Assembly (NCBI GenBank): GCA_018268955.1
Contig: JAFDVO010000008.1
Span: 22,988-86,987 of the forward strand
Origin: Acidobacteriota bacterium
Lineage (GTDB): Bacteria; Acidobacteriota; Vicinamibacteria; Vicinamibacterales; CAVVIG01
Direction: 5' to 3'
Length of the DNA: 64,000 nt
The notes beneath the pieces are model-generated. The model ran no database searches and was not told the origin of the DNA. It saw only the letters and a list, made by a program, of their open reading frames with translations. Of this stretch, positions 2,059-53,442 are shown piece by piece; the first letter of the stretch is position 1; every line of letters begins with the position of its first letter. Both the position numbers and the translations under genes were made by a program.

Positions 2059-2154
2059 GTCCGGCAAGGCCGACTCGAACAGGTCCCGCTTCCCGCCGTT
2101 CTGCCGTAGACTCTCGTGCTGCGGGGACGAGATCCCCAACAGACGGGAGTATCC

Positions 2155-3969
2155 ATGCACGTCCGATCGCTGTCCGTGTCAGCCACCGTGGCGATGTGGC
2201 TCTGTGCTGCTGTCGCGGCACATGCCCAGGCGCCCGACGGCAGTGCCGTGTTCCGCGCGAACTGCGCCACCTGCCATGACGGTGGGGCGTCGTCTCGTGC
2301 GCCGGCGCCGGAGCAACTGCGCGATCGCACACCCGAGTCGATCATTGCGGCGCTGACCGGCGGTGCCATGCGGTATCAGGGCCTGTCCCTGACCGGCGCG
2401 GAGCGACGCGCGGTCGCGGAGTACCTGACCGGCAAGAGCGTAGGGGCCGACGTGCAGGTGGACCCGAAGGCTGGACGCTGCACCAGCGCCGCGCCGTTCG
2501 TTGGCGTGTCCGGCGGCCCGGCGTGGAACGGCTGGAGCATCGACGCCGAGAACACCCACTTCGCGCCCGCGAAGGTGGGCGGGCTGACGGCTGACCAACT
2601 CCCGAAGCTGACGTTGAAGTGGGCGCTGGGCCTCCCCGAGGCGACGTCCGCGTGGGCACAGCCGACCGTCGTGGGTGGCCGCGTGTTCGTGGGCTCGCAG
2701 AACGGCACCGTCTTCTCGCTCGACGCGAAGAGCGGCTGCGTCGCGTGGACCTACGTCGCGAAGGGCGGTGTCCGTGGTTCGGTGAATGTCGGCCCGCGGC
2801 CCGGGGCTCCCGGCACGTTCAACGCCTACTTCTCGGACCAGAAGGGCTACGCGTACGCCGTCGACGCGAGCACCGGCGCCGAGGTGTGGAGCGTGCAGGT
2901 GGACCCGCATCCGCTCATTCGCCTGACCGGCTCGCCGGCGCTCTATCGCGATCGGCTCTACGTACCCACGTCGTCGTACGAGGAGGTGGGGAAGAGCCCC
3001 ACCTACAACTGCTGCACCTTCCGCGGGGCCATCGTCGCGCTCGACGTCGCGAATGGGAAGGTGGTCTGGCGGGCGTTCCCTATTCCGGAGGCGCCCGCAC
3101 TGATGGGCAAGCGCCCGGACGGGGGCGAGTCGTGGGGCCCGTCCGGCGGCGCGATCTGGTCTGCGCCGACCATCGACGTGAAGCGCGGCCTCATCTACGC
3201 CGGCGTGGGCAACACCTATAGCGGGACGATCTCGCAGCCGGGCACCGATGCCATCGTGGCCTTCGACCTGAAGACCGGCGCCATGAAGTGGTCGCAGCAG
3301 CTGGCGCCGAACGATGTCTATGGGTGCCGGAGCGGCGAGCCCAACTGCGTGGGCGAGCAGGGGCCAGACTTCGACTTCGGCGCGTCGCCCGTGCTGGCGA
3401 CGCTGCCGAACGGCAAGGACATCATCGTCTGCGGCCAGAAGTCCGGTGTGGCGTATGGGCTCGACCCCGACCACGGCGGCAAGGTCGTGTGGGAGTACCG
3501 CGCCGGCCAGGGCGGCGCGCTCGGCGGGATCGAGTGGGGCATCGCCACTGATGCGGAGCATGCCTATCTGCCGGTGGCCGATCAGAACCGGCCGAACCCC
3601 GGTGGTCTCCATGCCGTGAAGCTGGCAACCGGTGAGCGGGCCTGGTTCGCGCCGCCACCCGATCCGCTGCTCTGCGGGCAGAAGGGGCGTGGCTGCAACG
3701 CAGCGCAGTCTGCGGCGGTCACCGTCATCCCGGGTGCTGTGCTGTCCGGCTCCTTCGACGGCGGCATCCGTGCGTACTCGACGAAGGACGGCTCGGTCCT
3801 CTGGCAGTACGACACGAACCGCGAGTTCCTGACCGTCAACCGCGTGCGAGCACGCGGCGCGTCGCTCAACGGGCCTGCGCCGGTGGTCGTCGGCGGCATG
3901 CTGTACGTGAACTCGGGCGACTACCGCGCCCGGACCGGCAACGTCCTGCTGGCGTTCGGCGTCGAGTGA
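2155..3969 (+). CDS. Quinohaemoprotein: signal peptide, N-terminal c-type cytochrome domain (CATCH) and PQQ-like beta-propeller dehydrogenase (polyvinyl-alcohol-dehydrogenase-like)
   Basis: Lies in ORF 2116-3969. ATG 2155 is preceded by GGGAG at 2145-2149. Signal peptide MHVRSLSVSATVAMWLCAAVAAHAQA, haem-binding CATCH, then repeated propeller-like blades (VVGGRVFVGSQNGTVFSLDAKSG, AGVGNTY, VVGGMLYVNSG). Confidence 0.75.
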   Translation: MHVRSLSVSATVAMWLCAAVAAHAQAPDGSAVFRANCATCHDGGASSRAPAPEQLRDRTPESIIAALTGGAMRYQGLSLTGAERRAVAEYLTGKSVGADVQVDPKAGRCTSAAPFVGVSGGPAWNGWSIDAENTHFAPAKVGGLTADQLPKLTLKWALGLPEATSAWAQPTVVGGRVFVGSQNGTVFSLDAKSGCVAWTYVAKGGVRGSVNVGPRPGAPGTFNAYFSDQKGYAYAVDASTGAEVWSVQVDPHPLIRLTGSPALYRDRLYVPTSSYEEVGKSPTYNCCTFRGAIVALDVANGKVVWRAFPIPEAPALMGKRPDGGESWGPSGGAIWSAPTIDVKRGLIYAGVGNTYSGTISQPGTDAIVAFDLKTGAMKWSQQLAPNDVYGCRSGEPNCVGEQGPDFDFGASPVLATLPNGKDIIVCGQKSGVAYGLDPDHGGKVVWEYRAGQGGALGGIEWGIATDAEHAYLPVADQNRPNPGGLHAVKLATGERAWFAPPPDPLLCGQKGRGCNAAQSAAVTVIPGAVLSGSFDGGIRAYSTKDGSVLWQYDTNREFLTVNRVRARGASLNGPAPVVVGGMLYVNSGDYRARTGNVLLAFGVE

Positions 3970-4250: not shown

Positions 4251-6575
4251 ATGAAGTCTGCTGTCCGCATGTGGAGGCGAGCGGGTCTGTCCCTGCTCGC
4301 CGTGCTCGTCCTCTGTTCGCCGGCGCTCGCCCAGCGCAGGCCTCCGCAGGGCTCGTCTTCCGCCCCGTCCTCAACTGAGGATCCGCCGCCGCCCGTTCCG
4401 CCGCAGGTGATCTCGCGCGGCGAGAACGGCCGCATGGTGATCCGTGCGACCCGCTTGTCGCAGCCGCTGCGCATCGACGGTCGGCTGGACGAGTCGGTGT
4501 ACGCCGACGTGCCGCCGATCACCGACTTCATCCAGACCGTGCCGGCAGAGGGGAAGCCCTCGACCGAGCGGACGGAGGCCTGGGTGATGTTCGATGACAA
4601 CTTCTTCTACGTGACGGGCCGCATGTACGAGGACGTGCCGCCGGAGGAGTGGACGGCGAACGAACTCCGGCGCGACACGAGCCAGCTGCGCCAGAACGAC
4701 ATGTTCGGCTTCCTCATCGACACGTTCCACGACCGCAGGAACGGCTTCAATTTCTACACGAACCCGCTCGGCGGCTTTGCCGACCAGATCGTCACGGACG
4801 AAGGCAACCCGAACGTCGATTGGAACCCGGTGTGGGAAGTGCGCACCGGCCGTTTCCCCGGTGGGTGGATCGCCGAGATGGCGATCCCGTTCAAGTCGAT
4901 CCGCTACAACTCGGGCACGAACCAGACGTGGGGTATCCAGCTGCGCCGCTCGATCCGCCGCAAGAACGAGTGGACGCACCTGACCTTCATCCCCGCATCA
5001 ACCGGCGGGTCCACCAGCATCTTCCGCGTGTCCCGGGCCGCGACCCTGATTGGGCTCGACCTGCCGGCCGCCAGCAAGAACATCGAGCTGAAGCCGTACG
5101 GCATCTCGAAGGTGTCGAGTGACGTGGGCAAGGGCATCTCGAACGATCTCGAGCCGAACGCCGGGCTCGACGCGAAGGTCGGCATCACCGCGAACCTCAC
5201 GGCCGACATCACGGTCAACACCGACTTCGCCCAGGTGGAGGTCGACGAGCAGCAGGTGAACCTCACGCGGTTCAACCTCTCGTTCCCGGAGAAGCGCGAT
5301 TTCTTCCTCGAGGGACGCGGTATCTTCGACTTCGGTCGTGGTGGTCCGACGAACAGCCTCGCGGGTGCGAGCGGCGCGAGCAACTCGCTCACCCCGAGCC
5401 TGTTCTACAGCCGCGCGATCGGCCTCAACGCCGGGCGCGTGATTCCGATCAGGGCCGGCGGACGCGTCACCGGCAAGGCGGGCAAATACAGCCTCGGCGT
5501 GGTGAACATCGAGACGGGGGAGGACTCGGTCTCGAGCACCCCGTCGACCAACTTCACCGTCACGCGCATCAAGCGCGACATCCTCCGCCGCAGCAGCATC
5601 GGCGCGATGGCGACCAACCGATCGAACTCCACGGTCGTTCCCGGCGCGTCGAACTTCGCGTACGGGGCCGACGCGTCGTTCTCGTTCTTCCAGAACCTGA
5701 GCATGGGCGGCTACTACTCGAAGTCCGAGACCGACGGCAAGGACACCGACAACCAGAGCTACCAGGGGCGGTTCGACTACGCGGCCGACCGGTACGGCCT
5801 GCAGCTGCAGTTCCTCGACGTCGGCCAGAACTACAACCCTGAGGTCGGCTTCGTGCGTCGCTACGGATTCGATCGCACGTACGCATCCGCCCGCTTCAGC
5901 CCCCGTCCCCGCAAGCGGTTCCGCGGCATCCGCCAGTTCACCTATCAGGCAAGCCTCGAGTACATCCAGAACGCGGCGGGGCAGCTCGAGACGCGCAACC
6001 AGACCGGCCGGTTCGCCCTCGAGCGGCAGAACAGCGACCTCTTCGTCGTCGAAGGCGGGACGAACTACGAACTGCTCGTGGCGCCGTTTGCGATTGCGCC
6101 CGGTGTCCGGATTCCGAAGGGCAGCTACCCGTTCAACGACGTGACGATGTCGTATCAGCTCGGGCAGCAGCGCCGGCTGAACGGAACCGTCTCCTACCAG
6201 ACCGGGCAGTTCTACAACGGGACGATCAACGCCTACGGGTTTACGGCCGCGCGGTACGCGATCCTGAAACAGTGGTCGGTTGAACCGAGCATCCAGATCA
6301 ACTCGGTGAAGCTGCCGGCGGGTGATTTCACGACCAAGCTGATTCGTGCCCGCACCGACTACGGGTTCAACCCGCGCATGTTCATCAGCGGCCTCGTCCA
6401 GTACTCCTCGACGGGCAACGTGTTCAGCAGCAACTTCCGCTTCCGCTGGGAGTACCGCCCCGGCAGCGAGCTGTTCGTCGTCTACACCGACGAACGCGAT
6501 ACGACGAAGCCTGGGTATCCCGATCTCAAGAACCGTGCGTTCGTGGTGAAGGTGAACCGGCTCTTCCGGTTCTGA
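4251..6575 (+). CDS. DUF5916 family protein with N-terminal CBM9-like domain, predicted outer-membrane beta-barrel (paralog 1 of 5)
   Basis: Lies in ORF 4062-6575. ATG 4251 gives the signal peptide MKSAVRMWRRAGLSLLAVLVLCSPALAQ. Contains the CBM9-like block WEVRTGRFPGGWIAEMAIPFKSIRY and the family block TDFAQVEVDEQQVNLTRFNLSFPEKRDFFLEGRGIF. C-terminus is NRLFRF (aromatic terminal residue). Confidence 0.85.
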   Translation: MKSAVRMWRRAGLSLLAVLVLCSPALAQRRPPQGSSSAPSSTEDPPPPVPPQVISRGENGRMVIRATRLSQPLRIDGRLDESVYADVPPITDFIQTVPAEGKPSTERTEAWVMFDDNFFYVTGRMYEDVPPEEWTANELRRDTSQLRQNDMFGFLIDTFHDRRNGFNFYTNPLGGFADQIVTDEGNPNVDWNPVWEVRTGRFPGGWIAEMAIPFKSIRYNSGTNQTWGIQLRRSIRRKNEWTHLTFIPASTGGSTSIFRVSRAATLIGLDLPAASKNIELKPYGISKVSSDVGKGISNDLEPNAGLDAKVGITANLTADITVNTDFAQVEVDEQQVNLTRFNLSFPEKRDFFLEGRGIFDFGRGGPTNSLAGASGASNSLTPSLFYSRAIGLNAGRVIPIRAGGRVTGKAGKYSLGVVNIETGEDSVSSTPSTNFTVTRIKRDILRRSSIGAMATNRSNSTVVPGASNFAYGADASFSFFQNLSMGGYYSKSETDGKDTDNQSYQGRFDYAADRYGLQLQFLDVGQNYNPEVGFVRRYGFDRTYASARFSPRPRKRFRGIRQFTYQASLEYIQNAAGQLETRNQTGRFALERQNSDLFVVEGGTNYELLVAPFAIAPGVRIPKGSYPFNDVTMSYQLGQQRRLNGTVSYQTGQFYNGTINAYGFTAARYAILKQWSVEPSIQINSVKLPAGDFTTKLIRARTDYGFNPRMFISGLVQYSSTGNVFSSNFRFRWEYRPGSELFVVYTDERDTTKPGYPDLKNRAFVVKVNRLFRF

Positions 6576-6580
6576 GGCCG

Positions 6581-8911
6581 ATGGCAAAGACGATGAGAGC
6601 TGTGTGGGCGGCCGTGGCAGCGGCCATGGCGATGAGTGCGGGCGCGGCGCAGGCGCAGGGACAGGTCCAGGCGACCGGCGCGGCGTCGGTCGGCGAACTG
6701 CCAATTCCTGTGGCCCCGAAGACGATCGTGCGCGAGAACGGCAAGGTGGTCGTGCGCGCGATCCGGCTGACCGAACCGCTGAAGGTCGATGGCCGCCTCG
6801 ACGAGTCCGTGTACGAGCAGAACGAACCGGCCGATGGGTTCATCCAGACCGTGCCGGCGAATGGGCAGCCCGTGTCCGAGCGGACCGAGGCGTGGGTGAT
6901 GTACGACGACAGGTACATCTACATTGCCGCGAAGCTGTACGACTCGGCCCCGCCAGAGAAGTGGGTGGCGAACGAGCTCCGGCGCGACACGAACCAGCTG
7001 CGTCAGAACGACATGTTCGGCGTGCTGCTCGACACGTTCCACGACCGCCGCAACGGCTACAACTTCTACACGAACCCGCTCGGGGGCTTTACCGACCAGC
7101 TCGTCACGGACGAAGGCAACCCGAACGCCGACTGGAACCCCGTGTGGGAAGTGCGGCCGGGCCGATTCGATGGCGGCTGGACCACGGAGATCGCGATCCC
7201 GTTCAAGTCGATCCGCTACATCGCCGGCAAGAACCAGGCGTGGGGCATCCAGATGCGACGGTCGATCCGCCGCAAGAACGAGTGGGCGCACCTGACCGCA
7301 CTGCCGGCGGCCAACGGTGGACCGAACAGCGTGTTCCGCATCTCGCAGGCGGCGACGCTGGTCGGGCTCGACCTGCCGCAGCAGAGCGCGAACATCGACG
7401 TGAAGCCCTACGGCATCGTCACCTCGACGACCGACCGGCTGAAAAACCCGCAGGTCAACAACGACCTGACCGGCAGCTACGGCGGCGACATCAAGTACGG
7501 CATCACCGCGAACCTGACGGCGGACGTGACCATCAAGACCGACTTCGCGCAGGTCGAGGTCGACGAGCAGCAGCTGAACCTCACGCGCTTCAGCATCCAG
7601 TTCCCAGAGAAGCGCGACTTCTTCCTCGAGGGGCGCGGCATCTTCGACTTCGGCAAGGCGGGCGCGAACAGCGGCGGCGCCACACTCGGCTTCGGCAGCG
7701 GCGGCAACAGCAGCCCGTCGACCGGCTCGCCGACGTTCTTCTACAGCCGGCGCATCGGGCTCGAAGCCGGGCGGGCCATTCCGATCCGCGCTGGCGGGCG
7801 CCTGACCGGCCGTGTCGGGAAGTACACGATCGGCGCGCTGAACCTGGAGACAGGCGACGAGCCGGTTGCCGCGACGCCGGCCACGAACTTCACGGTGTTC
7901 CGCCTGAAGCGCGACCTGTTCCGCCGCAGCAGCATCGGGACGATGATCACGAACCGCGATCATTCGACGCTGGTGAAGGGCGCCTCCAACCTCGCGTACG
8001 GCGTGGACGGCCTGTTCTCGTTCTTCAACGACCTGAACATGGGCGGGTACGTCGCACGCTCCGACGTGGAGGGACGGAACACGAACAACACGAGCTATCA
8101 GGGACGGCTCGACTGGGCGCCCGATCGTTACGGTGTGCGCGTGGACTACCTGAAGGTCGGCCAGAACTACAGCCCAGAGGTCGGCTTCACGAACCGCAGC
8201 AACTTCCGGCGCTCGTTCGCGTCGGCCCGCTTCAGCCCGCGTCCGAAGCGGAGCAAGCGCGTGCGCAAGTACACGTCGGAAGGCACCTACGAGTACCTGG
8301 TGACCGACACGACCGGGCGCCTCGAATCGCGCGCGGCTGCCGGACGCTTCCTGATCGAGAAGCAGAGCAGCGACCTGATCAGCGTCGTCGCCACGAACCG
8401 CTACGAGTACCTCGCGCGGCCCTTCACGGTCGCCCAGGGCGTGACGATTCCGGTCGGCGGCTACACGTTCTCGGACCTCACGGCCACCTACGGGTTCGGC
8501 CAGCAGCGCCGGCTCTCGGGCAGCCTCGCCTATCAGGTGGGGCATTTCTACAACGGCGACATCAACGCCGTGAGCTTCAGCACGGGACGGTTCGCGATCC
8601 GCAAGAACTGGTCGCTCGAGCCCACCTTCACCGTCAACCACGTGTCGTTGCCTGCCGGCACGTTCACGAACGCGGTGATTGTGGCGCGCACGGACTACGG
8701 GTTCAATCCACGACGCTTCGTGAGCGCACTCGTGCAGTACTCGTCGGCGACGCACGTGTTCAGCTCGAACTTCCGCTTCCGCTGGGAGTATCAGCCCGGC
8801 AGCGAGCTGTTCGTCGTCTACACCGACGAGCGCGATACGACGAGGCCCGGGTACCCCGACCTGAGGAACCGTGCGTTCGTCGTGAAGGTGAACCGCCTGT
8901 TCCGCTTCTGA
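6581..8911 (+). CDS. DUF5916 family protein with CBM9-like domain (paralog 2)
   Basis: Starts 5 nt after paralog 1. Signal peptide MAKTMRAVWAAVAAAMAMSAGAAQAQ. Carries the same conserved blocks as paralog 1. The last ~150 nt are nearly identical at nucleotide level to paralog 1 and end in NRLFRF. Confidence 0.9.
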   Translation: MAKTMRAVWAAVAAAMAMSAGAAQAQGQVQATGAASVGELPIPVAPKTIVRENGKVVVRAIRLTEPLKVDGRLDESVYEQNEPADGFIQTVPANGQPVSERTEAWVMYDDRYIYIAAKLYDSAPPEKWVANELRRDTNQLRQNDMFGVLLDTFHDRRNGYNFYTNPLGGFTDQLVTDEGNPNADWNPVWEVRPGRFDGGWTTEIAIPFKSIRYIAGKNQAWGIQMRRSIRRKNEWAHLTALPAANGGPNSVFRISQAATLVGLDLPQQSANIDVKPYGIVTSTTDRLKNPQVNNDLTGSYGGDIKYGITANLTADVTIKTDFAQVEVDEQQLNLTRFSIQFPEKRDFFLEGRGIFDFGKAGANSGGATLGFGSGGNSSPSTGSPTFFYSRRIGLEAGRAIPIRAGGRLTGRVGKYTIGALNLETGDEPVAATPATNFTVFRLKRDLFRRSSIGTMITNRDHSTLVKGASNLAYGVDGLFSFFNDLNMGGYVARSDVEGRNTNNTSYQGRLDWAPDRYGVRVDYLKVGQNYSPEVGFTNRSNFRRSFASARFSPRPKRSKRVRKYTSEGTYEYLVTDTTGRLESRAAAGRFLIEKQSSDLISVVATNRYEYLARPFTVAQGVTIPVGGYTFSDLTATYGFGQQRRLSGSLAYQVGHFYNGDINAVSFSTGRFAIRKNWSLEPTFTVNHVSLPAGTFTNAVIVARTDYGFNPRRFVSALVQYSSATHVFSSNFRFRWEYQPGSELFVVYTDERDTTRPGYPDLRNRAFVVKVNRLFRF

Positions 8912-8921
8912 GGATCTGACA

Positions 8922-8993
8922 GGCCATGGGCGATGGGCGACAGGCCGCGCCCGCAGTCGTGACGGGCCTGCGGCCCATGCCGATTGCCATCAG
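8922..8993. repeat. GGCNNTG heptamer run with an imperfect inverted partner
   Basis: Starts 11 nt after TGA 8909-8911: ggccatg ggcgatg ggcgaca ggccgcg. A downstream partial reverse complement follows (gcctgcggcccatgccgattgccatc). Confidence 0.6.
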
Positions 8994-9016
8994 TGCTTCT
9001 GTACCCTGAGGTCAAT

Positions 9017-11272
9017 GTGCGACGCGCGTGTCTGACCACGATCCTCGCTGCGCTGGCTGCGACCGCGGCCGCCCAGCAGCCCCCTGACCCCGTTCCACCG
9101 GCGATCATCGCGAGAAACGAGGCCCGACAGGCGACCGTTCGGGCGGTGAAGCTCGACGAGCCGCTGCGCATCGACGGCCGTCTGGACGAGGCGATCTACT
9201 CGTCGATCACGCCGATCACGGACTTCATCCAGACGCTGCCTCGGAACGGCGAGGATCCGACCGAGAAGACCGAAGCGTGGGTGATGTTCGACGGCGAGCG
9301 GTTCTACGTCGCTGCCCGCTGCTGGGACTCGGCGCCGCCAGCGAAATGGGTCGCCAACGAGATGCGCCGCGATGCGAATCAGGTCCGGCAGAACGATCAC
9401 TTCGGCTTCATGATCGACACGTTCCACGATCGGCGGAACGGGTACGTCTTCTACTCGAACCCGGTCGGCGGCCGCATCGATCTCACCGAAGCGGACGAGG
9501 GGAACTCGAACGCCGACTGGAACCCGGTCTGGGAAGTGCGCACCGGCCGCTTCGAGGGCGGCTGGACGATCGAGATGGCCGTGCCGTTCAAGTCGATCCG
9601 CTACATCTCCGGCGAAGGCCAGACGTGGGGCATCCAGATGCGCCGGGCGATCCGCCGGAAGAACGAGTGGGCGCACCTCACGCCGCTGCCGACCGTGATG
9701 GGGGGATCCCAGGGGTTCTTCAGGATCTCGGCCGCCGCGACGCTGGTCGGGCTCGACCTGCCGCCGGCCAGCCGGAACATCGAGTTGAAGCCCTACGGCA
9801 TCGCACGCTCGACAACGGATCGCGTCGCGTCACCGCTCGTGAACAACAAGGGTGAAGGAGACTTCGGCGTCGACGCGAAGTACGGCATCACCGCCAACCT
9901 CACCGCCGACTTCACGTACAACACCGACTTCGCACAGGTCGAAGTGGACGAGCAGCAGGTGAACCTCACCCGTTTCTCGCTGCAGTTTCCTGAGAAGCGG
10001 GAGTTCTTCCTCGAGGGACGCGGCATCTTCAGCTTCGCGTCGTTCCCAACCACTGGTTCATCAGGCGGTGGGTCATCGACGAGCACCGTCCCGCTGCTGT
10101 TCTACAGCCGGCGCATCGGCCTGAACGGCGGGCGCGTAGTTCCGATCAACGTGGGCGGACGCGTGACCGGCAAGGTCGGCAAGTTCAGCCTCGGACTGCT
10201 GAACATCCAGACCGGCGAGGAGTCGGCCTCGAAGTCGCCGTCGACGAACTTCAGTGTTGTCCGCGTGAAGCGCGACGTCTTCCGGCGGAGCGCGATCGGC
10301 GCCATGGTCACGAACCGCTCGCAGTCCGCTGACGTGCCGGGGGCCGCGAACCAGGCGTACGGCCTGGACGGGGTGTTCAACTTCTTCGGCGACCTCACGA
10401 TGGGCGGCTACTACGCGCGCACGGAGACCGACAACGTGAGCGGCGACGGCTCCAGCTACCAGGCGCGCGTCGAGTACGCGCCGGACAAGTACGGTGCGCA
10501 GTTCGAGCGGGTCAAGGTCGGCGACGCGTTCAACCCGGAGGTCGGCTTCCTGCGGCGACGCAACTTCGAGCGCACGTTCGGCGAAGTGCGCTACAGCCCG
10601 CGGCCCAAACGCATCAGAGGCATTCGCCAGGTCACGATGACGGCGGGCGTGGAGTACATCGAGGGCAGCACGTCGAAGCGCATGGAGTCGCGGCAGCAGA
10701 CCGGGCGCATCAACGTGGAGCGGGAGAACAGCGACCAGTTCTCCTTCGAAGGCGGCACGAACTTCGAGTTCCTGCCGTCGCCGTTCAGGGTCGCACGCAA
10801 CGTCACGATTCCGTCCGGCGGCTACGGGTTCAACGACTGGACGGCGCGCTACGCGTTCGGTCAGCAGCGGCGGATCTCAGGCACCGTGCAGTTCCAGAAG
10901 GGGCAGTTCTACAACGGGCACATCAACGCGCTCACTGTGAGCGGCGCGCGCGTGTCGGTGATGACCCGCCTCTCGGTCGAGCCGAGCGTCTCGGTGAATG
11001 CGGTCACGCTGCCGGCGGGCGACTTCACGACCACCGTGCTGCGCGCCAGGTCCGACTACGCGTTCTCGCCGTTGATGTTCGTAAGCGGCCTGGTGCAGTA
11101 CAGCTCGAACGACCGGCTCTTCTCGACCAACCTGCGCTTCCGCTGGGAATACCTGCCGGGCAGCGAGCTCTTCGTCGTCTACACCGACGAGCGCGACACG
11201 ATACCTGTTGGTTTCCCGACGCTGAAGAACCGCGCGCTGGTCGTGAAGGTGAATCGGCTGTTCAGGTTCTAA
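9017..11272 (+). CDS. DUF5916 family protein with CBM9-like domain (paralog 3)
   Basis: Lies in ORF 8984-11272, which has a TTG start. I prefer GTG 9017 because it gives the signal peptide MRRACLTTILAALAATAAAQQ and clears the upstream repeat. Same conserved blocks; C-terminus NRLFRF. Confidence 0.85.
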   Translation: MRRACLTTILAALAATAAAQQPPDPVPPAIIARNEARQATVRAVKLDEPLRIDGRLDEAIYSSITPITDFIQTLPRNGEDPTEKTEAWVMFDGERFYVAARCWDSAPPAKWVANEMRRDANQVRQNDHFGFMIDTFHDRRNGYVFYSNPVGGRIDLTEADEGNSNADWNPVWEVRTGRFEGGWTIEMAVPFKSIRYISGEGQTWGIQMRRAIRRKNEWAHLTPLPTVMGGSQGFFRISAAATLVGLDLPPASRNIELKPYGIARSTTDRVASPLVNNKGEGDFGVDAKYGITANLTADFTYNTDFAQVEVDEQQVNLTRFSLQFPEKREFFLEGRGIFSFASFPTTGSSGGGSSTSTVPLLFYSRRIGLNGGRVVPINVGGRVTGKVGKFSLGLLNIQTGEESASKSPSTNFSVVRVKRDVFRRSAIGAMVTNRSQSADVPGAANQAYGLDGVFNFFGDLTMGGYYARTETDNVSGDGSSYQARVEYAPDKYGAQFERVKVGDAFNPEVGFLRRRNFERTFGEVRYSPRPKRIRGIRQVTMTAGVEYIEGSTSKRMESRQQTGRINVERENSDQFSFEGGTNFEFLPSPFRVARNVTIPSGGYGFNDWTARYAFGQQRRISGTVQFQKGQFYNGHINALTVSGARVSVMTRLSVEPSVSVNAVTLPAGDFTTTVLRARSDYAFSPLMFVSGLVQYSSNDRLFSTNLRFRWEYLPGSELFVVYTDERDTIPVGFPTLKNRALVVKVNRLFRF

Positions 11273-11273
11273 G

Positions 11274-11336
11274 GGCCATGGGCGCTGGTCGGTAGTCCGT
11301 GGGCAGGCTCTTGGCTCCGGACTTCTGGCTTCAGCG
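11274..11336. repeat. Degenerate in-phase heptamer run after the stop codon
   Basis: Starts 2 nt after TAA 11270-11272: ggccatg ggcgctg gtcggta gtccgtg ggcaggc tcttggc tccggac ttctggc ttcagcg. Confidence 0.5.
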
Positions 11337-17011: not shown

Positions 17012-17095
17012 CAGAGCCCAGAGCCCCGAGCCCGCAGCCCAAAGCCCGCAGCCCAAAGCCTATGGCCCATGGCCCAGCGCCCACCGCCCATTGCC
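17012..17095. repeat. Twelve in-phase heptamers, NNNNGCC on plus and GGCNNNG in the sense of the peroxidase gene
   Basis: Units are cagagcc cagagcc ccgagcc cgcagcc caaagcc cgcagcc caaagcc tatggcc catggcc cagcgcc caccgcc cattgcc. The array ends 11 nt from the stop codon at 17107-17109. Confidence 0.85.
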
Positions 17096-17106: not shown

Positions 17107-18009
17107 TCAGCGAGCGGAGGAGAGTGTCCTGAGGAACGCCACGAGGTCCCGCTTGTCCTCGTCAGGGAGATCCAGGCGCTGCATGTCGCGATCGAGGTTC
17201 GGGTTCGGACGGCCGCCGCGGTCGTAGTAGTCGACGACCTCTTCGAGCGTCGCGAGGGATCCGTCGTGCATGTAAGGCGCTGTCCTGCCGACCTCTCGCA
17301 GCGTCGGTGTCTTGAACGCGCCGCGGTCTTCAGGCTTGCCCGTCACCTCGAATGCCCCGTCATCGACAAAGCGGCCCGACGCTCCTGCCTCGGACGAGGC
17401 GGGCACCCACGCGATGCCGGTATTGTGCAGCTTCTCGTCCGTGAAGTTCGTGCCGACGTGGCACATCAGGCAGTTGCCGCGTCCCTGGAACACGCGCAGG
17501 CCGTTACGTTCCTGTGCTGACAGCGCGCTGCGCTCCCCGTTGTTGAAGCGGTCATAGCGCGTGTCGCCGGACATCTGCGCGCGCACGTAGGTGGCGAGTG
17601 CCGCGGCGATCTTGTCGACAGGCAGTTCCACCCTTTGCGAGGCTTCTTCAAGAGTGAGATCCATCTCGTTTGGATCCTGAATGGGCATCAGGACCTGCTG
17701 TTCGAGCGTCGCAGCGCGCCCATCCCAGAAGAACACGCGTCCCCACACGCGATTAAGGATCGTCGGCGAGTTGCGTCGACCCTTGCGACCGAATACGCCA
17801 GGGGACACAGCGTCCGGCTTCGTGAACGCGCGCTCCGGATCGTGGCAGGAGGTGCACGCGATCGTGCCGTCTTTCGACAGGCGTGTATCCGCGAAGAGCC
17901 GCCGCCCGAGCTCAATCTTCTCCGGCGTGATCGGATTCGCTTCAGGGACCGGCAGCGTGGTGCCGAGGCCGAGCGGGATCGCGACTGCGGCGAGTGCCAG
18001 GAGCCTCAC
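17107..18009 (-). CDS. Di-haem cytochrome c peroxidase (CCP/MauG family)
   Basis: 300-aa ORF with a GTG start. Two CxxCH motifs (CTSCHDPERAF and CLMCHVG), a signal peptide, and the conserved tail PYMHDGSLATLEEVVDYY. Confidence 0.9.
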   Translation of the reverse strand: MRLLALAAVAIPLGLGTTLPVPEANPITPEKIELGRRLFADTRLSKDGTIACTSCHDPERAFTKPDAVSPGVFGRKGRRNSPTILNRVWGRVFFWDGRAATLEQQVLMPIQDPNEMDLTLEEASQRVELPVDKIAAALATYVRAQMSGDTRYDRFNNGERSALSAQERNGLRVFQGRGNCLMCHVGTNFTDEKLHNTGIAWVPASSEAGASGRFVDDGAFEVTGKPEDRGAFKTPTLREVGRTAPYMHDGSLATLEEVVDYYDRGGRPNPNLDRDMQRLDLPDEDKRDLVAFLRTLSSAR

Positions 18010-18034
18010 GAGGGGATCTTACGCCGCGGGCAGA

Positions 18035-18285
18035 GGCTCCAGGCTCCGGACTTCGGGCTCCGGTCGTTGTCGGCTGCGGGCAAGGATCGGCAGGCAGGGG
18101 GAGGGCGGGGCAGGCAGGCGGTCAGGGCTGGTGGGGCTGGTGGGGCTGGTGGGACTGATGCGGGCTTCAGGCTCCAGACCTCGGGCTTCAGGCCGGTCGG
18201 CTTCAGGCCGGACACCACGAGTGTCGCAGCCGGAAGCCGACAAGGCCGAGAGCCTGTAGCCTGGAGCCCAGAGCCTGAAGTTCGG
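18035..18285. repeat. Composite array: heptamers, three perfect 9-mers, then inverted GGCTTCA/TGAAGCC arms
   Basis: Heptamers from 18035: ggctcca ggctccg gacttcg ggctccg. GGCTGGTGG occurs three times at 18126-18152. Then gggcttcaggctccagacctcgggcttcaggccggtcggcttcaggccgg faces ccggaagccgacaaggccgagagcctgtagcctggagcccagagcctgaag. Confidence 0.7.
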
Positions 18286-18290
18286 TGCGC

Positions 18291-21200
18291 TTAGAAGTCC
18301 AATTGCGCACCGAACTTGACGAGTCGTCCCTGCAGGATGCTGGTGGGCGTCCGCCAGTTCGGGCCGACGGTGTTGTTCTGCGTCAGGATCGCGCTGCTGT
18401 TCAGCAGGTTGTACACGTCCATCGACGCGGAGAGGCGGCGGCTGCCGAACCGGAAGTTCTTGCCGACGCGCACGTCAATCTGCGTGAAGCGATCCCCATA
18501 CAGCGTGCCCGGCGCAATGAGGCCGGTCGTTGCCGAGCCGGCCGAGAGCGGCCGACCCAGGTTCTGCGCGAGCGCACTGGTGACCGTGTAGGTCGCGAGG
18601 ATCTGCGGACCGGGCCGGTTCTGGACCGTGCCGCTTGCAGTGAGGCCCCACCAGGGCAGCGGGTAGCTGACGAGCCCCTTCACATCCGGCTGGTACGGCG
18701 GCGCCACACGGCAGTAGAGCGTGCTCGGGGTACCTGCTGCGCCGGTCGAGCCGTACGTCGGCGCAAGCGTCCCGGCCGTGGAGGCGGCCACGCCGGCCAC
18801 GGCTGCGTAGGTGACGCTGACCTTGTCGGCCACATCGCAGATGTCGGTCACTTCGTGGCCGATGCTGACGCCGCCAGACGCCATGCCCCCGCGCGGCAGG
18901 CGCGCGTTCATGTTCAGGTCATAGCCGGTGTACACGTCGCTCACCTTCCCGAAGTTGCTCGCCTTCTGCACGACGAAGAACGGCACCGTCGTCGAGAAGG
19001 AGGGGTTCAGGTCGACGAAGCCGCAGACCTGCTGCCCGGCGTTGGGCAGGGTGAAGCCCGAGGTGGACGCTGGTCCGGTCGGCGCCGTCACGCAGAACTG
19101 GTCGTACGCGGAGGGCGGCCGCGACGTGTTCTCGCTCGCGACGAAGTTGCCGAATGTGTGCCGCGTCCACTGGAAGTCCAGGGCCACGCGCGGCAGGACC
19201 TCGTGCTGGAAGCCGAGCGCGAACTCCTGGTCGTTCGGACGCACGCCCCAGCCCTTCGTGATCTCGTCCGCGTAACGGGCGGCGATGTTCAGCGAGCCGA
19301 GCGGTGCGTTCAGCAGCCCGCACTCGCCGTTCGCGGCGGAGTTGTACAGGTTGCAGTCCGGGAAGAAGTTGCCGTTCGCGTCGGTCCAGCTGCGGGTGGC
19401 GCTGTTCACCGAGGTGTTCACCCGGTTGTTCAGCGTGGCCATGTTGGTCGACTCGCTGGCGAGGTACCGCCCCCAGTTGCCGCGCACCACGGTCTTGCCA
19501 TTGCCGAACAGGTCGTAGGTGGCGCCCACGCGCGGCGTGATGTCCTTCCAGTTCGGCACGTTCGAGATCGCCTCGTACTGCCGTGCGCCGACGAAGGGGA
19601 TGGCAGCCAGCGTCTGCGCCGGGACGTACGCGTTGTGGTAATCGAAGCGCACGCCGTAGTTCAGCGTGAGCTTCCCGACGGTCCAGCGGTCCTGCGCGTA
19701 GAGCCCGAGCGCAGACTTCAGCTTCTCGAGGTCGATGAGCGGACGCGCGTACTGGGTGATCGAGGTCGGGATGCCGTTGCGGAACGACCAGGCCTGGGCC
19801 TGGTTCGTGTCGTACGTGTACTGCCGCGTGCCCCACATGTTCTGCACGCCCACCTTGAACGAGTGCGAACCGGTGACGTAGTTGGCTGCCGCGCGGAAGT
19901 TCCACTGGTGGTTGTAGGCGGTCGTGAACACGTTGTTGGCGCCGTAGGTGATGCCGAGCGCCGACTCCGTCTTCGAGATCACCGCCTCCGGACCGTACCC
20001 GTTCACGTTGTACGGCTCGGGGCCGAAGATCCACCGCTCGTTGTAGAAGGTGAAGCCCCCTTCGAAGAGCAGCTTGTTCGTCGCCGGGTTGCTCCAGGTG
20101 CTCTGGAGGATGTACTCGGGACGGTGCGTGAAGTAGAGGCCCGCTTCCGGGGAGACCGTGGCTGCGCAGTTGTTGCAGTCGACCAGCCGCTGGTTGAAGT
20201 GCCCGTAGAAGGTGAGCTTGTGCTTCTGCGCCGCCTGCCACGTGAGGTTCAGGGTTTCACCTCGCGTCCACGTGTCGCCGCCGACCGCCGGCTGCGTCAG
20301 GTCCTGCGAGTTCGGCACCAGGGTCGTCGGATGGGACGCGTCGCCGTAGAGGCAGCCGTTCGGGTTGGCGCAGTACTGCGGCGCGCCCGGACGCAGGTTC
20401 TTGTACATGCCGGCGATGTAGTTCTGTGCGCCCGAATAGCGGAAGCCGCCGTACCACCAGAGGCGGTCCTTGATGATCGGCCCGCCGCCCGCCGGGTTCA
20501 CGTCCCAGATCTTCTTCACGCTGTTCACGCGCGTGAGGCCGATCTTCTTGAGGTCATCGGTCAGGTTGTCGCTCTGCAGACCGCTGTTGCTGAAGTTGCC
20601 GAAGAAGTAGCCGCGGAACGTGTTGCCGCCCTCCTTCGGAATCGTGTTGCTGAGCACACCGCTGGACCGCCACTCGGCCGAGAGCGCGCTGGTCGTGATG
20701 GTCATCTCCTGGACGGTGCCGGTGTTCTGCACGAGCGTCGTGTTGTAGCCGCCGCCCGTGTTGTTCATGTTGTTGTAGGGCATGCCGTTCATCACGAGCG
20801 GCATCTGGTCCGAGCGGCTGCCGTGGACCGAGAGCGTCTGGTACCGCTCACCACCGGTGCCGCCGACGTCCTGGCTGCCGAGTGCGATGCTGACGCCCGG
20901 CACCAGCACGCTGAGGCTCTGGAAGCTGCGGCCGGTGGGAATCGCGTCGATCAGATCGCTCGTGAGCGACTTCCGCTGCTGCACGCTCTGGGTGTCGATG
21001 AGCGGACTCTGGCCGGACACGGTGATCGTTTCCTCGAGGCCGCCGACCTTCAGGTCGGCGTTCACGGTTGCCGTGAAGCCGCCAGTTAGTTCGATGCCTT
21101 CACGCTTCACCGTGCTGAAGCCGGTCAGCGTGAACGTGACGCTGTAGGTGCCGGGGCGCAGGTCGATGATGCTGTAGCGACCGTCCGCGTCCGTAATCGC

Positions 21201-21380
21201 GGTGCGGGTCTTCTCGATGAGCGCGGGGCTCGCTGCCTCGACCGTGACGCCGGGCATCACGCCGCCGGACGTGTCGCGGACAACGCCAGAGATGCTGCCG
21301 TTCTGCTGCGCGAACGCAGCACCGTGGCTCACGGCCAGGACGGCCAGCGCGAGCAGGCACATCCTCAATGCTTTCCTCAT
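18291..21380 (-). CDS. TonB-dependent-receptor-like outer-membrane protein with N-terminal carboxypeptidase-regulatory-like domain
   Basis: Lies in ORF 18291-21470. ATG 21380 is preceded by GGGAGGAAG. Signal peptide MRKALRMCLLALAVLAVSHGAAFAQ, a CarboxypepD_reg-like block (GSISGVVRDTSGGVMPGVTVEA...DGRYSIIDLRPGTYSVTF) and a C-terminal GAQLDF. Confidence 0.9.
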   Translation of the reverse strand: MRKALRMCLLALAVLAVSHGAAFAQQNGSISGVVRDTSGGVMPGVTVEAASPALIEKTRTAITDADGRYSIIDLRPGTYSVTFTLTGFSTVKREGIELTGGFTATVNADLKVGGLEETITVSGQSPLIDTQSVQQRKSLTSDLIDAIPTGRSFQSLSVLVPGVSIALGSQDVGGTGGERYQTLSVHGSRSDQMPLVMNGMPYNNMNNTGGGYNTTLVQNTGTVQEMTITTSALSAEWRSSGVLSNTIPKEGGNTFRGYFFGNFSNSGLQSDNLTDDLKKIGLTRVNSVKKIWDVNPAGGGPIIKDRLWWYGGFRYSGAQNYIAGMYKNLRPGAPQYCANPNGCLYGDASHPTTLVPNSQDLTQPAVGGDTWTRGETLNLTWQAAQKHKLTFYGHFNQRLVDCNNCAATVSPEAGLYFTHRPEYILQSTWSNPATNKLLFEGGFTFYNERWIFGPEPYNVNGYGPEAVISKTESALGITYGANNVFTTAYNHQWNFRAAANYVTGSHSFKVGVQNMWGTRQYTYDTNQAQAWSFRNGIPTSITQYARPLIDLEKLKSALGLYAQDRWTVGKLTLNYGVRFDYHNAYVPAQTLAAIPFVGARQYEAISNVPNWKDITPRVGATYDLFGNGKTVVRGNWGRYLASESTNMATLNNRVNTSVNSATRSWTDANGNFFPDCNLYNSAANGECGLLNAPLGSLNIAARYADEITKGWGVRPNDQEFALGFQHEVLPRVALDFQWTRHTFGNFVASENTSRPPSAYDQFCVTAPTGPASTSGFTLPNAGQQVCGFVDLNPSFSTTVPFFVVQKASNFGKVSDVYTGYDLNMNARLPRGGMASGGVSIGHEVTDICDVADKVSVTYAAVAGVAASTAGTLAPTYGSTGAAGTPSTLYCRVAPPYQPDVKGLVSYPLPWWGLTASGTVQNRPGPQILATYTVTSALAQNLGRPLSAGSATTGLIAPGTLYGDRFTQIDVRVGKNFRFGSRRLSASMDVYNLLNSSAILTQNNTVGPNWRTPTSILQGRLVKFGAQLDF

Positions 21381-21500
21381 TCTTCCTCCCAGGGAATGGT
21401 GGTGCACTGAAACAAGCGCACGGATGTTTGCACACGGCACGATCGGTCGCAACGACAAGTTGCGACACATCTGTCGCTGCGCGCGTCACTCTCCGTAGAA

Positions 21501-21740
21501 TTGGATGCGATGGCGGGCGACCGATCGGAGGGGCTGCGGATCTGGCGGCTTCGCAAGCGGCAGTTGTATGTGGACGCCGAACTGCGGCCAGCACCAGACA
21601 CAGGGGAATGGGACCTGCTGGTCTACTACGGGACGACGCTCACATCGTCGAAGCGCTTCGCCACGCGGAACGAGGCGGTCGACGAGGGGCGTGCGCGAAG
21701 GGCGGAGCTGGAGCGGGAGGGGTGGACGTTCCACTGGTAA
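21501..21740 (+). CDS. Small hypothetical protein (79 aa, or 76 aa from ATG 21510)
   Basis: The ORF has a high third-position G+C pattern consistent with coding. No family recognised. It ends ...LEREGWTFHW. The start codon is uncertain (TTG 21501 or ATG 21510). Confidence 0.5.
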   Translation: MDAMAGDRSEGLRIWRLRKRQLYVDAELRPAPDTGEWDLLVYYGTTLTSSKRFATRNEAVDEGRARRAELEREGWTFHW

Positions 21741-21766
21741 CGCACATTAGAGCAGTGTGCGTTACC
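21736..21766 (+). terminator. 11-bp perfect hairpin overlapping the stop codon of the small ORF
   Basis: ggtaacgcaca (21736-21746) pairs with tgtgcgttacc (21756-21766) around a 9-nt loop. There is no U-tract, so terminator function is only a guess. Confidence 0.4.
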
Positions 21767-21784
21767 AATGAAGCGTCCGAGAGA

Positions 21785-21875
21785 GGCTACAGACTGCTGG
21801 CTCCAGGCTCCGGGCCGAGTCGGCTCCGGCCTGAAGCCGACCAACCCTGAAGCCCGGAGCCCGAAGCCTGGAGCC
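21785..21875. repeat. Thirteen in-phase heptamers, mirror-symmetric between two convergent genes
   Basis: Units are ggctaca gactgct ggctcca ggctccg ggccgag tcggctc cggcctg aagccga ccaaccc tgaagcc cggagcc cgaagcc tggagcc. Positions 21799-21814 pair with 21860-21875 (16 bp, 1 mismatch). The array ends 1 nt from the stop at 21877. Confidence 0.85.
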
Positions 21876-21876
21876 T

Positions 21877-23049
21877 CTACGCGATCGTGATCTTCCTGGG
21901 GAACTGTCCGTTGTCCTCGAGGAACGTCTTCTTGTTCGCGAGGTCTGCGGCGGTCGGCTGCACGACGCCGTTGGTGTCCGTGACGCGCGAGACGAGCGTG
22001 TGCTCACCGGCAGCGGGGGTGTTCCAGTCGAACGTGAACAGCTTCCATCCGTAGGTGGCCGACGTGTCCGGCGAGAGCGTCGCCTTCTGCCAGGCTCCAC
22101 CGTCGACCTGCACCTCCACCGAGCGGATCGGTGTGCCGTCGTTCAGGACGAAGCCCGTGACCTTGTAGTTCTTGTTGCCGGAGGTGGTCACGCGTGCAAT
22201 CACCGACTTGAGCCGCATCTTCGAGACGCCGGTCTCCTTCGGCATCACGACGCCGCCGATGTTCTCCTCGCGCAGCGTGCGATACCAGCGCGTCTGGAAC
22301 TTGCCCATGTAGGGCTCGGCCTGCACGTGGATGTTGGACAGCCACTTCACGTTCGCGACGCCGTACCACCCCGGCACCAGCAGCCGGAGCGGCGAGCCCT
22401 GGTGGACCGTGAGCGGCTGGCCGTTGAGGGCCCAGGCGAGGAACGGCTCGCCCGACAGCGCCTGCTCACGCGTGAGGCTGCGGCCGAACTGCTGCTCGAC
22501 CGTGAACTTCTGGGTGCGCCACTCGATCTCTTCCTGTCCCTTGTCCGCGCCGAAGAAGACGAACTCTCGCGCGTCGCGCGAGACGCCTGCCTGATCGAGG
22601 ACGAGCCGCAGCGGGATGCCGGTCCACTTGCCGTTGCCCGCAAACCCCTGCACCAGCCGCGGGCTGTTGCCCGAGCACTCGAAGCCGGCGATCAGCTCGC
22701 GGTTGCCCATCTTCTTCAGATCGTCGAGCGACAGCGAGAGCGGCGAGGTCACCATGCCGCTGACCTTCAGGCGCCAGCTGGCGGCATCTACCGTGGGATG
22801 ACCGTAATGCTGCGTCGTGAAGAACTGATCGGGCGGCGTGTACGGGCCGTCGATCTTCCGGATGTCGTAGTTCCGGGTCGTGGCGTTCGGATTCGGGTTG
22901 AAGTTGGCAGGGAAGTCGCTGAAGGGCACCACGGTCTCGCCCTGCGCCAGCGCGGGGAGCGTGAACCCGGGGAGGTTGGCCACCGACAGGCCGATGCCGG
23001 CAAGGCCGAGCGTCTTCAGGATGTCGCGGCGCGACTGTGCAGGGGCCAT
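21877..23049 (-). CDS. Tat-exported molybdopterin-dependent oxidoreductase (sulfite-oxidase family)
   Basis: 390-aa ORF with the twin-arginine signal MAPAQSRRDILKTLGLAGIGL, GGAGGA upstream of the ATG, and Mo-binding plus dimerisation-domain-like sequence. Confidence 0.85.
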   Translation of the reverse strand: MAPAQSRRDILKTLGLAGIGLSVANLPGFTLPALAQGETVVPFSDFPANFNPNPNATTRNYDIRKIDGPYTPPDQFFTTQHYGHPTVDAASWRLKVSGMVTSPLSLSLDDLKKMGNRELIAGFECSGNSPRLVQGFAGNGKWTGIPLRLVLDQAGVSRDAREFVFFGADKGQEEIEWRTQKFTVEQQFGRSLTREQALSGEPFLAWALNGQPLTVHQGSPLRLLVPGWYGVANVKWLSNIHVQAEPYMGKFQTRWYRTLREENIGGVVMPKETGVSKMRLKSVIARVTTSGNKNYKVTGFVLNDGTPIRSVEVQVDGGAWQKATLSPDTSATYGWKLFTFDWNTPAAGEHTLVSRVTDTNGVVQPTAADLANKKTFLEDNGQFPRKITIA

Positions 23050-23976: not shown

Positions 23977-24075
23977 GGAATGCAGGAAGGATGGAGGGGG
24001 AGATTGGAGGGTGGAGGTTGGGGTTGGAGTGGGGAACACCGGCTCCCTGCCCCGACCTCAGACCTCCGTCCTCTG
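23977..24075. repeat. G-rich TGGAGGN heptamers facing a C-rich partner (GACCTCN)
   Basis: G-rich side: ggaatgc aggaagg atggagg gggagat tggaggg tggaggt tggggtt ggagtgg. C-rich side: ccctgccccgacctcagacctccgtcctctgcc. The two sides are imperfectly complementary. Confidence 0.65.
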
Positions 24076-24096
24076 CCTTCGCTCGTGCCGCGAGCG

Positions 24097-28686: not shown

Positions 28687-28723
28687 GCGGAGGACCCGCC
28701 TCATCCGGGTATCATGAACGCGC

Positions 28724-29428
28724 GTGAACCCGCTGCTCTCGATCATCGTCCCGGTCTACAACGAAGAAGCGACCATCGGCGCCGTCCTGGATCGGCTGCT
28801 CGCCATCGGCTTTCCTGTCCCGATCGAAGTGATCGCGGTGAACGACGGCTCCCGGGATGGGACGGCGGCGGCACTGGACGCCGCGGCCGCACGGAGTCCG
28901 CTGATCACGGCCGTTCACCTCGAACGGAACGGCGGCAAGGGCATGGCGCTGCGTACCGGATTCGCGCGCACGCGGGGCTCGATCGTGGCGATCCAGGACG
29001 CGGATCTCGAGCTCGATCCGGCGCAGTTGCTCACGTTGATCGAGCCGATCCTCGCCGGGCGCGCTGACGTCGTCTACGGGTCGCGCTTCCTGAACGATGC
29101 CTCGCACGTGCCGATCGTCTCGCGGCTGGGCAACGCAGGGCTGACCTTCCTGACGAACCTCCTGTACGGCACCAAGCTCACCGACATGGAGACCTGCTAC
29201 AAGATCATGCGCGGCGACATCGCGCGAGGCCTCCGGCTCACCGCGAACCGGTTCGACATCGAACCGGAGATCACCGTGAACCTGCTCAAGAGCGGCGTGC
29301 GCATCATCGAACTGCCCGTCAGCTTCTCGCCACGCTCGCGGCAGGCTGGCAAGAAGATCCGCTGGCGCGACGGCTGGCACGCCGTGGACCTGCTCGTGCG
29401 GCATCGGTTCGGAGGCAGCGGCTCCTGA
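28724..29428 (+). CDS. Family 2 glycosyltransferase (polyprenyl-phosphate sugar synthase-like)
   Basis: GTG start. Contains LSIIVPVYNEEATIG, VNDGSRDGT and IQDADLE motifs. Confidence 0.85.
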   Translation: MNPLLSIIVPVYNEEATIGAVLDRLLAIGFPVPIEVIAVNDGSRDGTAAALDAAAARSPLITAVHLERNGGKGMALRTGFARTRGSIVAIQDADLELDPAQLLTLIEPILAGRADVVYGSRFLNDASHVPIVSRLGNAGLTFLTNLLYGTKLTDMETCYKIMRGDIARGLRLTANRFDIEPEITVNLLKSGVRIIELPVSFSPRSRQAGKKIRWRDGWHAVDLLVRHRFGGSGS

Positions 29429-34452: not shown

Positions 34453-34464
34453 CTTGCGTGCTGA

Positions 34465-53438: not shown

Positions 53439-53442
53439 CCGT

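Follow-up and report, generated by a model that had tools for sequence, protein, structure and literature searches.

Five anciently diverged DUF5916 paralogues of predicted outer-membrane location, three of them in a conserved tandem array, on a Vicinamibacterales contig

The 64,000-nucleotide stretch analysed here, hereafter the window, lies on contig JAFDVO010000008.1 of a soil-type Acidobacteriota bacterium of the order Vicinamibacterales and carries five genes for predicted outer-membrane proteins of the family DUF5916, numbered p1 to p5 by position. The first three stand head to tail on the plus strand: p1 (4251-6575, 774 amino acids), an intact open reading frame (ORF) with a Pfam match and an AlphaFold2 model; p2 (6581-8911, 776 amino acids), an ORF with a Pfam match and an ATG start that has GAGG upstream; and p3 (9017-11272, 751 amino acids), also recognised by ORF and Pfam, whose GTG start is preceded by GAGG and recurs in the orthologues of two other Vicinamibacterales assemblies (L010 and L011). 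The remaining two, p4 (24682-26949, plus strand, 755 amino acids, C-terminal methionine) and p5 (41698-44007, minus strand, 769 amino acids, C-terminal tryptophan), rest on ORF, Pfam and the tree described below, in which they branch deeply. Each of the five ORFs has a single terminal stop; for p1, another gene caller used the ATG at 4269, giving 768 amino acids. The ORFs bore out the five coordinates, the order and the gaps of 5 and about 100 nucleotides in the original prediction, the measured gaps being 5 (p1-p2) and 105 nucleotides (p2-p3), and tblastn of the window with p1 and p5 as queries returned p1-p5 only, with no fragments. Since p2 starts 5 nucleotides after the p1 stop, with GAGG before its ATG, its translational coupling to p1 is likely, and the co-oriented triplet is probably co-transcribed; a promoter and terminator scan over p1-p3 gave nothing above shuffled expectation. 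Amino acid identity to p1 was 62% for p2, 62% for p3, 47% for p4 and 44% for p5, in a window with a GC content of about 66% and, for real genes, about 88% GC at third codon positions.

Pfam searches were read against gathering scores of 22.6 bits for DUF5916 (PF19313) and 23.4 bits for CBM9_1 (PF06452). All five proteins matched DUF5916 (67.3-80.3 bits, E 1e-18 to 1e-22; p1, 71 bits), and the expected profile evidence was thus obtained for this family in every copy but for CBM9_1 in none, all five scores falling below the gathering value. The DUF5916 alignment in p1-p5 was confined to profile positions of about 6-87 of 572, the TDFAQVE…FPEKR region, and so did not span the full domain, while other members align further (P0214, for example, over positions 6-429); the barrel of the Vicinamibacterales/Gemmatimonadota branch has diverged beyond the Pfam model. 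PF19313 is also the precomputed Pfam assignment of 120 close homologues; close homologues come from Acidobacteriota metagenome-assembled genomes (MAGs) and are labelled 'DUF5916 domain-containing protein [Vicinamibacterales bacterium]' in the source databases, and the domain order in p1-p5, CBM9-like first and DUF5916 region second, is that of the Pfam family.

All five copies had been credited with a signal peptide, a CBM9-like motif and an invariant TDFAQVE.D.QQ… block. By inspection, Sec-signal-like N-termini were found in five of five (basic n-region, hydrophobic core, AxA-type site before Q). The CBM9-like motif occurred strictly in three, with P for T in p2 and V at the [IF] position in p3, and the TDFAQVE block strictly in four, p5 being one residue off with QV for QQ. 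The statement that the family has no assigned function agreed with our searches: no NCBIfam model matched any of p1-p5, no relative was found among Protein Data Bank (PDB) sequences for a single protein or for a 74-sequence profile, and no paper on DUF5916/PF19313 was found in the literature collection searched. When 1.84 billion cluster representatives (50% identity) were searched exhaustively with HMMER, 19,954 clusters matched at E ≤ 1e-3 and 3,883 at E ≤ 1e-30, which places DUF5916 among the larger outer-membrane families without a known function, abundant in soil phyla such as Acidobacteriota and Gemmatimonadota. The window adds ordinary multi-copy members to this known, uncharacterised family and no new kind of system.

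Modelled with AlphaFold2 from 74 homologues, p1 reached a mean predicted local distance difference test score (pLDDT) of 76.5 and a predicted template modelling score of 0.70. From the N-terminus it comprises a signal peptide at amino acids 1-28 (4251-4334, plus strand; ending ...SPALA before QRR by inspection, and modelled as a helix at amino acids 2-20), a predicted CBM9/DOMON-like β-sandwich at amino acids 54-234 (4410-4952, plus strand; sub-threshold CBM9_1 match and Foldseek) with pLDDT mostly 75-93 and dips to 48-69, a conserved and poorly modelled linker at amino acids 235-263, and a β-barrel of about 25 DSSP strands at amino acids 264-769 (5040-6557, plus strand), with pLDDT mostly 80-94 from amino acid 400. 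The family-hallmark motif TDFAQVEVDEQQVNLTRFNLSFPEKRDFFLEG (amino acids 324-355; 5220-5315, plus strand), located from the alignment and the model, lies within a 75-residue loop (amino acids 325-399) between barrel strands 4 and 5; beyond the motif, the loop continues with a Gly/Ser-rich segment whose length varies. The motif is near-invariant across the 74 homologues and is the most conserved sequence of the family; the loop itself was mostly modelled at pLDDT <50. Invariant across the same homologues are also the tryptophans W111, W191, W195, W206 and W227. A barrel-only model from the five-sequence alignment of the window paralogues, at pLDDT 44.7, was unusable.

Structural comparison of the p1 model with the PDB using Foldseek gave as its top match the CBM9 module 1i82 (1i82_A; E 8.9e-8, target template modelling (TM) score 0.67, 18% identity), and the β-sandwich also matched 7nwn (E 1.1e-7, target TM 0.59); when a profile of the CBM9 region was searched against PDB sequences, 7nwn was again best, as a weak match (E 0.19). 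The predicted fold of amino acids 54-234 thus resembles CBM9 of the DOMON-like superfamily, as in Thermotoga maritima Xyn10A CBM9-2 (1i82) and 7nwn, but the known modules are carried by secreted glycoside hydrolases, whereas the domain of p1-p5 is joined to a membrane barrel, scores below the Pfam threshold and shares only that 18% identity. After CBM9, the Foldseek matches were TonB-dependent transporters, LptD, the PapC usher, SlpA and Occ porins, all at TM 0.2-0.33, and the resemblance of the modelled barrel to PDB entries is generic large-barrel similarity. Pfam, the model and Foldseek together support the description of these proteins as DUF5916 members with an N-terminal CBM9-like domain and a large barrel, and the structure prediction, with its β-sandwich ahead of about 25 barrel strands, gave the layout that had been anticipated. 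We regard this predicted architecture, and the membership of p1-p5 in DUF5916, with high confidence.

Just before the CBM9-like domain, and outside the Pfam CBM9_1 match, a conserved β-hairpin (…P.VI.R…G…V.RA.RL…) was observed at amino acids 50-70 of p1 (window 4398-4460), with equivalents in p2-p5; R56, R65 and A66 are invariant in the 74 sequences, and the pLDDT is 83-91.

Several features are those expected of outer-membrane β-barrels, namely the signal peptide-like N-termini, the approximately 25 predicted strands and the aromatic C-terminus. The C-terminal residues of p1-p5 are F, F, F, M and W, so that the aromatic terminus claimed for four of the five copies, with M in the fourth, was confirmed. 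When loop sides were assigned by counting strands back from the C-terminus, the presumed periplasmic loops were the more conserved, with paralogue/orthologue identities of 0.64/0.93 against 0.43/0.80 for the presumed outer loops. Greater conservation of loops on the periplasmic side is the usual pattern of outer-membrane proteins.

The age of the copies was assessed by comparison with other assemblies. Four other Vicinamibacterales assemblies (L001, which is MAG STL-ACI17, L008, L010 and L011) keep the p1-p2-p3 triplet with its order, its orientation and its short spacing, and orthologue amino acid identity in them is 81-87% for p1, 74-84% for p2 and 79-85% for p3. In a 15-sequence codon alignment, nucleotide identity was 0.77-0.82 (about 80%) between orthologues and 0.64-0.71 (about 68%) between paralogues. 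In a neighbour-joining tree, p1, p2 and p3 were each monophyletic; p1 and p2 are sisters, and p3 branches before them. The relatives with two copies or one (L012, L013) fall outside the triplicated group, Gemmatimonadota come next and stand nearer to p1-p3 than p4 and p5 do, and p4 and p5 occupy separate deep lineages. Judged from these sequences, the triplication predates the split of the sampled Vicinamibacterales lineages, with p1, p2 and p3 kept by purifying selection as three distinct orthologue groups and p4 and p5 representing older lineages than the triplication. Given the tree and the conserved triplet, 'five copies in 40 kb' amount to one ancient triplication plus two older lineages and no recent burst, and the earlier term 'local amplification' is misleading, for two of the copies belong to much older lineages that lie near the array by chance.

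Independent DUF5916 tandem pairs were observed in a Gemmatimonadales MAG (L003, 7664-12193) and in the more distant acidobacterial contig L012 (10001-14433). As each pair groups with itself in the tree, tandem duplication recurs in the family.

The best overall explanation of the locus, to which we assign a probability of roughly 0.45, is that p1-p5 are anciently diverged, Sec-exported outer-membrane DUF5916 paralogues with a channel or receptor role. Each protein would consist, in order, of a signal peptide, a short Pro-rich linker of variable sequence, the CBM9/DOMON-like β-sandwich, the barrel and a conserved C-terminal strand, the barrel of about 24-26 strands having loops that are short except for a long, conserved acidic one (TDFAQVE.D.Q..NL.RF...FPEKR.FFLEG) between strands 4 and 5. 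The five proteins may act as TonB-independent, substrate-selective outer-membrane channels or receptors in which the β-sandwich serves as a ligand-binding (probably glycan) or gating module, the acidic loop lines or constricts the pore, and variable loops give the paralogues different specificities. A channel or uptake function as such we put forward tentatively, at somewhat less than even odds. Four points suggest it: p1-p5 lack a Plug domain, conserved paralogues are numerous, the outer loops vary, and transporters and periplasmic dehydrogenases are encoded nearby. Pfam at E ≤ 0.01 gave no Plug, TonB-dependent receptor or LptD/OstA match in p1-p5, and the occurrence of many conserved paralogues per genome within a huge family is what porin and receptor families also show. 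The earlier description of the five paralogues as 'diversified surface receptors or porins' is plausible.

Among the neighbours, a gene for an AtoE-like SCFA_trans (PF02667) inner-membrane transporter lies directly upstream of the p1 orthologue in L001 (5658-7061), L008 (8275-9723), L010 (8348-9796) and the more distant L012 (8363-9787), an adjacency that may be a functional pairing or a mere remnant of synteny. A periplasmic cytochrome c-pyrroloquinoline quinone (PQQ) β-propeller dehydrogenase is encoded immediately upstream of p1 in the window (2116-3969) and in L011, and p5, too, follows a transporter gene, that of a cation diffusion facilitator. The conserved three-gene array beside transporters and periplasmic oxidoreductases offers a concrete start for asking what the barrels carry. 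In a broader and doubtful extension, DUF5916 as a whole, with its approximately 20,000 clusters at 50% identity, would be a widespread class of TonB-independent uptake channels. The CBM9/DOMON-like domain would then capture the ligand or gate the barrel, possibly as a plug inside it, with the invariant acidic loop serving as selectivity filter; the Vicinamibacterales channels would pair with the adjacent AtoE-like transporter and the periplasmic PQQ dehydrogenases, and the three-gene array would provide three specificities or a hetero-oligomer.

TonB-dependent transporters (FauA, ZnuD, Cir, PirA) likewise have a large barrel after an N-terminal globular domain and many paralogues, and were among the top Foldseek matches of p1, yet only at TM 0.2-0.33; p1-p5 have neither a Plug (PF07715) nor a PF00593 match in Pfam at E ≤ 0.01, their N-terminal domain is predicted to be a β-sandwich rather than a plug fold, and about 25 strands are predicted against 22. 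A genuine TonB-dependent-type receptor of the same window (18291-21470) matches Plug and OMP_b-brl_4, unlike p1-p5. The OprD/Occ porins of Pseudomonas, which appeared at Foldseek ranks 21, 30 and 34 for p1, are similar in being multi-paralogue, TonB-independent barrels with genes beside transporters and periplasmic enzymes, and differ in having 18 strands, no extra domain and no sequence relationship.

A number of observations weigh against the channel or receptor reading. The CBM9_1 scores of p1-p5 (17.6, 22.1, 20.8, 19.0 and 19.0 bits, at amino acids of about 52-231) are all sub-threshold. The DSSP strand count of 25 is odd, which makes the topology ambiguous, and the CBM9-like domain may be periplasmic, surface-exposed or a plug; the hallmark loop, rich in invariant acidic and basic residues, would equally fit a catalytic or metal site. 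The SCFA_trans gene is absent beside p1 in the window and in L011, so the adjacency is not obligatory, and the neighbours of DUF5916 genes vary widely, as in L013. The literature search also returned no experimental evidence for any member.

The alternative that best survives, although we consider it unlikely, is an export or insertion machine of the LptD or exopolysaccharide type, in which a periplasmic CBM9/DOMON-like domain passes a glycan or glycolipid to a 26-strand barrel for delivery to the surface. LptD, the lipopolysaccharide insertase, shares with p1 the layout of an N-terminal β-sandwich or jellyroll and a very large barrel (26 strands in LptD) and occupied Foldseek ranks 7, 12, 16 and 19, but with TM-scores of just 0.27-0.32, and neither Pfam nor NCBIfam gave an LptD/OstA match (PF03968/PF04453) in p1-p5, nor Pfam a polysaccharide-export match. 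Some DUF5916 members (P0125, P0128, P0228) carry extra N-terminal domains before the CBM9-like one, either FlgO/TolB_N-like or a right-handed β-helix (NosD-like), and these are relevant to the side of the membrane at which the N-terminus lies; the FlgO and TolB_N domain types are periplasmic where characterised, and the FlgO/TolB_N-like additions thus argue for a periplasmic N-terminus. Downstream of p4, 19 nucleotides on, lie a polytopic-looking 572-amino-acid ORF without a Pfam match and then a GT2 glycosyltransferase gene, which counts in favour of this reading; against it, p1-p3 adjoin transporters and oxidoreductases and no glycan-synthesis genes. The genome has at least five conserved paralogues, while export and insertion machines are, to our knowledge, usually single-copy, and no LptE-like partner was identified near p1-p5.

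It is quite improbable, in our assessment, that the proteins, like OmpA or SlpA in function, are structural tethers with a periplasmic CBM9-like domain that binds glycan and so anchors the outer membrane to peptidoglycan. A precedent for such binding is the histidine kinase PghK, whose periplasmic CBM9-like domain senses peptidoglycan damage (bioRxiv 10.1101/2023.05.05.539549). Deinococcus SlpA was among the Foldseek barrel matches, and a Pro-rich linker follows the signal peptide; however, five diverged paralogues with variable loops are more than tethering would require, Pfam gave no match to OmpA_C, SLH or any other peptidoglycan-binding family, and the hallmark loop would be left unexplained. 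There is little to recommend an outer-membrane-embedded glycan hydrolase or lyase with the acidic loop as catalytic site and the CBM9-like domain as substrate-targeting module: the most conserved segment of the family is indeed a loop with many invariant D, E, Q, N, R and K residues, and the CBM9 modules of known enzymes accompany glycoside hydrolases (1i82 and 7nwn are both from xylanases), but no catalytic-family similarity was found in Pfam, NCBIfam or PDB, the hallmark loop is modelled at pLDDT <50, and the barrel enzymes known to us (OMPLA, PagP, OmpT) are small barrels.

The ancient divergence that forms part of the channel or receptor reading has one further rival, raised by the 3' ends of p1 and p2. 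The last 150 nucleotides of p1 (6426-6575, plus strand), which encode the final two strands of the barrel and the C-terminus ...VKVNRLFRF, and the last 150 of p2 (8762-8911, plus strand) are 89% identical, as against 70% over the whole genes, which agrees with the earlier estimate by eye of about nine in ten and, together with the further point that this lies far above the rest of the genes, had suggested recent duplication or gene conversion. The excess over the gene-wide value is real, but the 3' end is not unique: in sliding windows of codon columns, p1-p2 identity reached 0.91 at columns 161-200 (in the CBM9-like domain), 0.84 at 341-380 and 0.86 at 741-780. These peaks coincide with the most conserved parts of the protein in all comparisons, and the last 150 nucleotides are elevated in other pairs too (p1-p3, 76%; p2-p4, 77%). 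The 3' peak is thus one of several conservation peaks common to all paralogue pairs, and the sliding-window and run tests gave no conversion tract.

Synonymous sites point the same way. At identical amino acids, paralogues used the same codon at frequencies of 0.60-0.69, and 0.58-0.59 would be expected from codon usage alone; synonymous sites between paralogues are essentially saturated. Between p1 and p2, the same-codon frequency was 0.76 (n = 46) in the last 50 codons against 0.70 gene-wide. In the other four genomes, 128 nucleotide sites separate the p1 clade from the p2 clade by fixed differences; at these diagnostic sites the window p1 was p1-like at 123 and the window p2 was p2-like at 115, with no tract. 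Private shared states, present in both window paralogues and absent elsewhere, numbered 4 against a cross-genome control mean of 5.25, and a Sawyer-type run permutation on p1/p2 concordant runs gave p = 0.21. Moreover, comparison of the last 50 codons of the window p2 with p1 of each of the other genomes gave identities of 0.83-0.85. The p2 3' end of the sister lineage L011 is likewise p1-like. In the second p2 subclade this end has diverged, VKVNRL being replaced by VKATRL or VKVTRL.

What speaks for homogenisation, beyond the contrast of 89% with 70%, is a small residual excess within the genome. Over the last 50 codons, p1 and p2 of the window are 0.887 identical in nucleotides (94% in amino acids), slightly closer to each other than either is to its own orthologues (0.83-0.87) and above the 0.83-0.85 seen across genomes; in columns 141-200 the values are 0.872 against 0.79-0.84; and a rare CGT codon at alignment column 784 is common to p1 and p2 alone. 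The residual at the 3' end amounts to about 5 nucleotides in 150. Short, old conversion events may have taken place, although nothing in these sequences requires one. Since the p2 3' end is similarly close to p1 in all the other genomes, the 89% identity reflects strong amino acid constraint, retained on the final two strands of the barrel and on the C-terminal signal, together with extreme codon bias, and no homogenisation within the genome. A recent tandem duplication of p1/p2, or recent homogenisation of their 3' ends by conversion, is very improbable in view of the conserved triplet in four other assemblies, the clean orthologue clades, the saturated synonymous sites and the lack of a tract in the diagnostic-site, private-state and run tests; that neither has occurred we hold to be very likely. 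In a GC-rich genome, high nucleotide identity at the 3' ends of paralogous genes for outer-membrane proteins is thus no sure sign of conversion, as C-terminal β-signal constraint plus codon bias produces it.

In the remaining gene context, the cytochrome c-PQQ dehydrogenase gene is preceded by an alternative complex III (ACIII)-like module, with an NrfD/ActC-like gene at 53-1558 and ActD at 1555-2058, both upstream of p1. L001, L008 and L011 also have ACIII-like genes and a cytochrome c-PQQ dehydrogenase gene ahead of the triplet, accompanied there by genes for molybdopterin and Fe-S subunits. Within the window, p5 lies 20 nucleotides downstream of a gene for a cation diffusion facilitator efflux protein (44028-44909, minus strand). 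The arrangement of an ORF of about 570-600 amino acids without a Pfam match and a GT2 gene was observed twice on the plus strand, at 26968-29428, directly downstream of p4, and at 51639-54180; the two were considered as a second paralogue pair, which was rejected, the large ORFs not being detectably similar. The TonB-dependent-type receptor gene at 18291-21470 (minus strand), which also encodes a CarboxypepD_reg domain, is flanked by genes for a di-haem cytochrome c peroxidase (17107-18009) and a sulfite-oxidase-like molybdoenzyme (21877-23049), the whole spanning 17107-23049 on the minus strand; genes for these two enzymes also follow the triplet in L011.

Rfam searches upstream of p1 and p4 returned no riboswitch or other element, and the sole Rfam match above threshold was a tRNA (34468-34553, minus strand), which lies inside a mechanically called ORF (34377-35330, minus strand) that has no Pfam match and is probably not a gene. 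In the 870-nucleotide divergent intergenic region upstream of p4, a long, near-perfect hairpin (23985-24090, plus strand) was found; its 5' arm is rich in GGAGG and its 3' arm in C, it has a ΔG of -67.7 kcal/mol and z = -5.45, and Rfam gave only spurious microRNA-precursor matches for it. Finally, the motif GGCCATGGGCG stands right after the stop codons of p2 and p3 (8922-8939 and 11274-11284, plus strand) and recurs at 17064-17095 (minus strand), 63089-63106 (plus strand) and other intergenic or gene-end positions, in tandem, overlapping form at two sites. With at most one mismatch it has 10 matches against 3.4 expected, a number reached by no shuffle, and it may be a small intergenic repeat.

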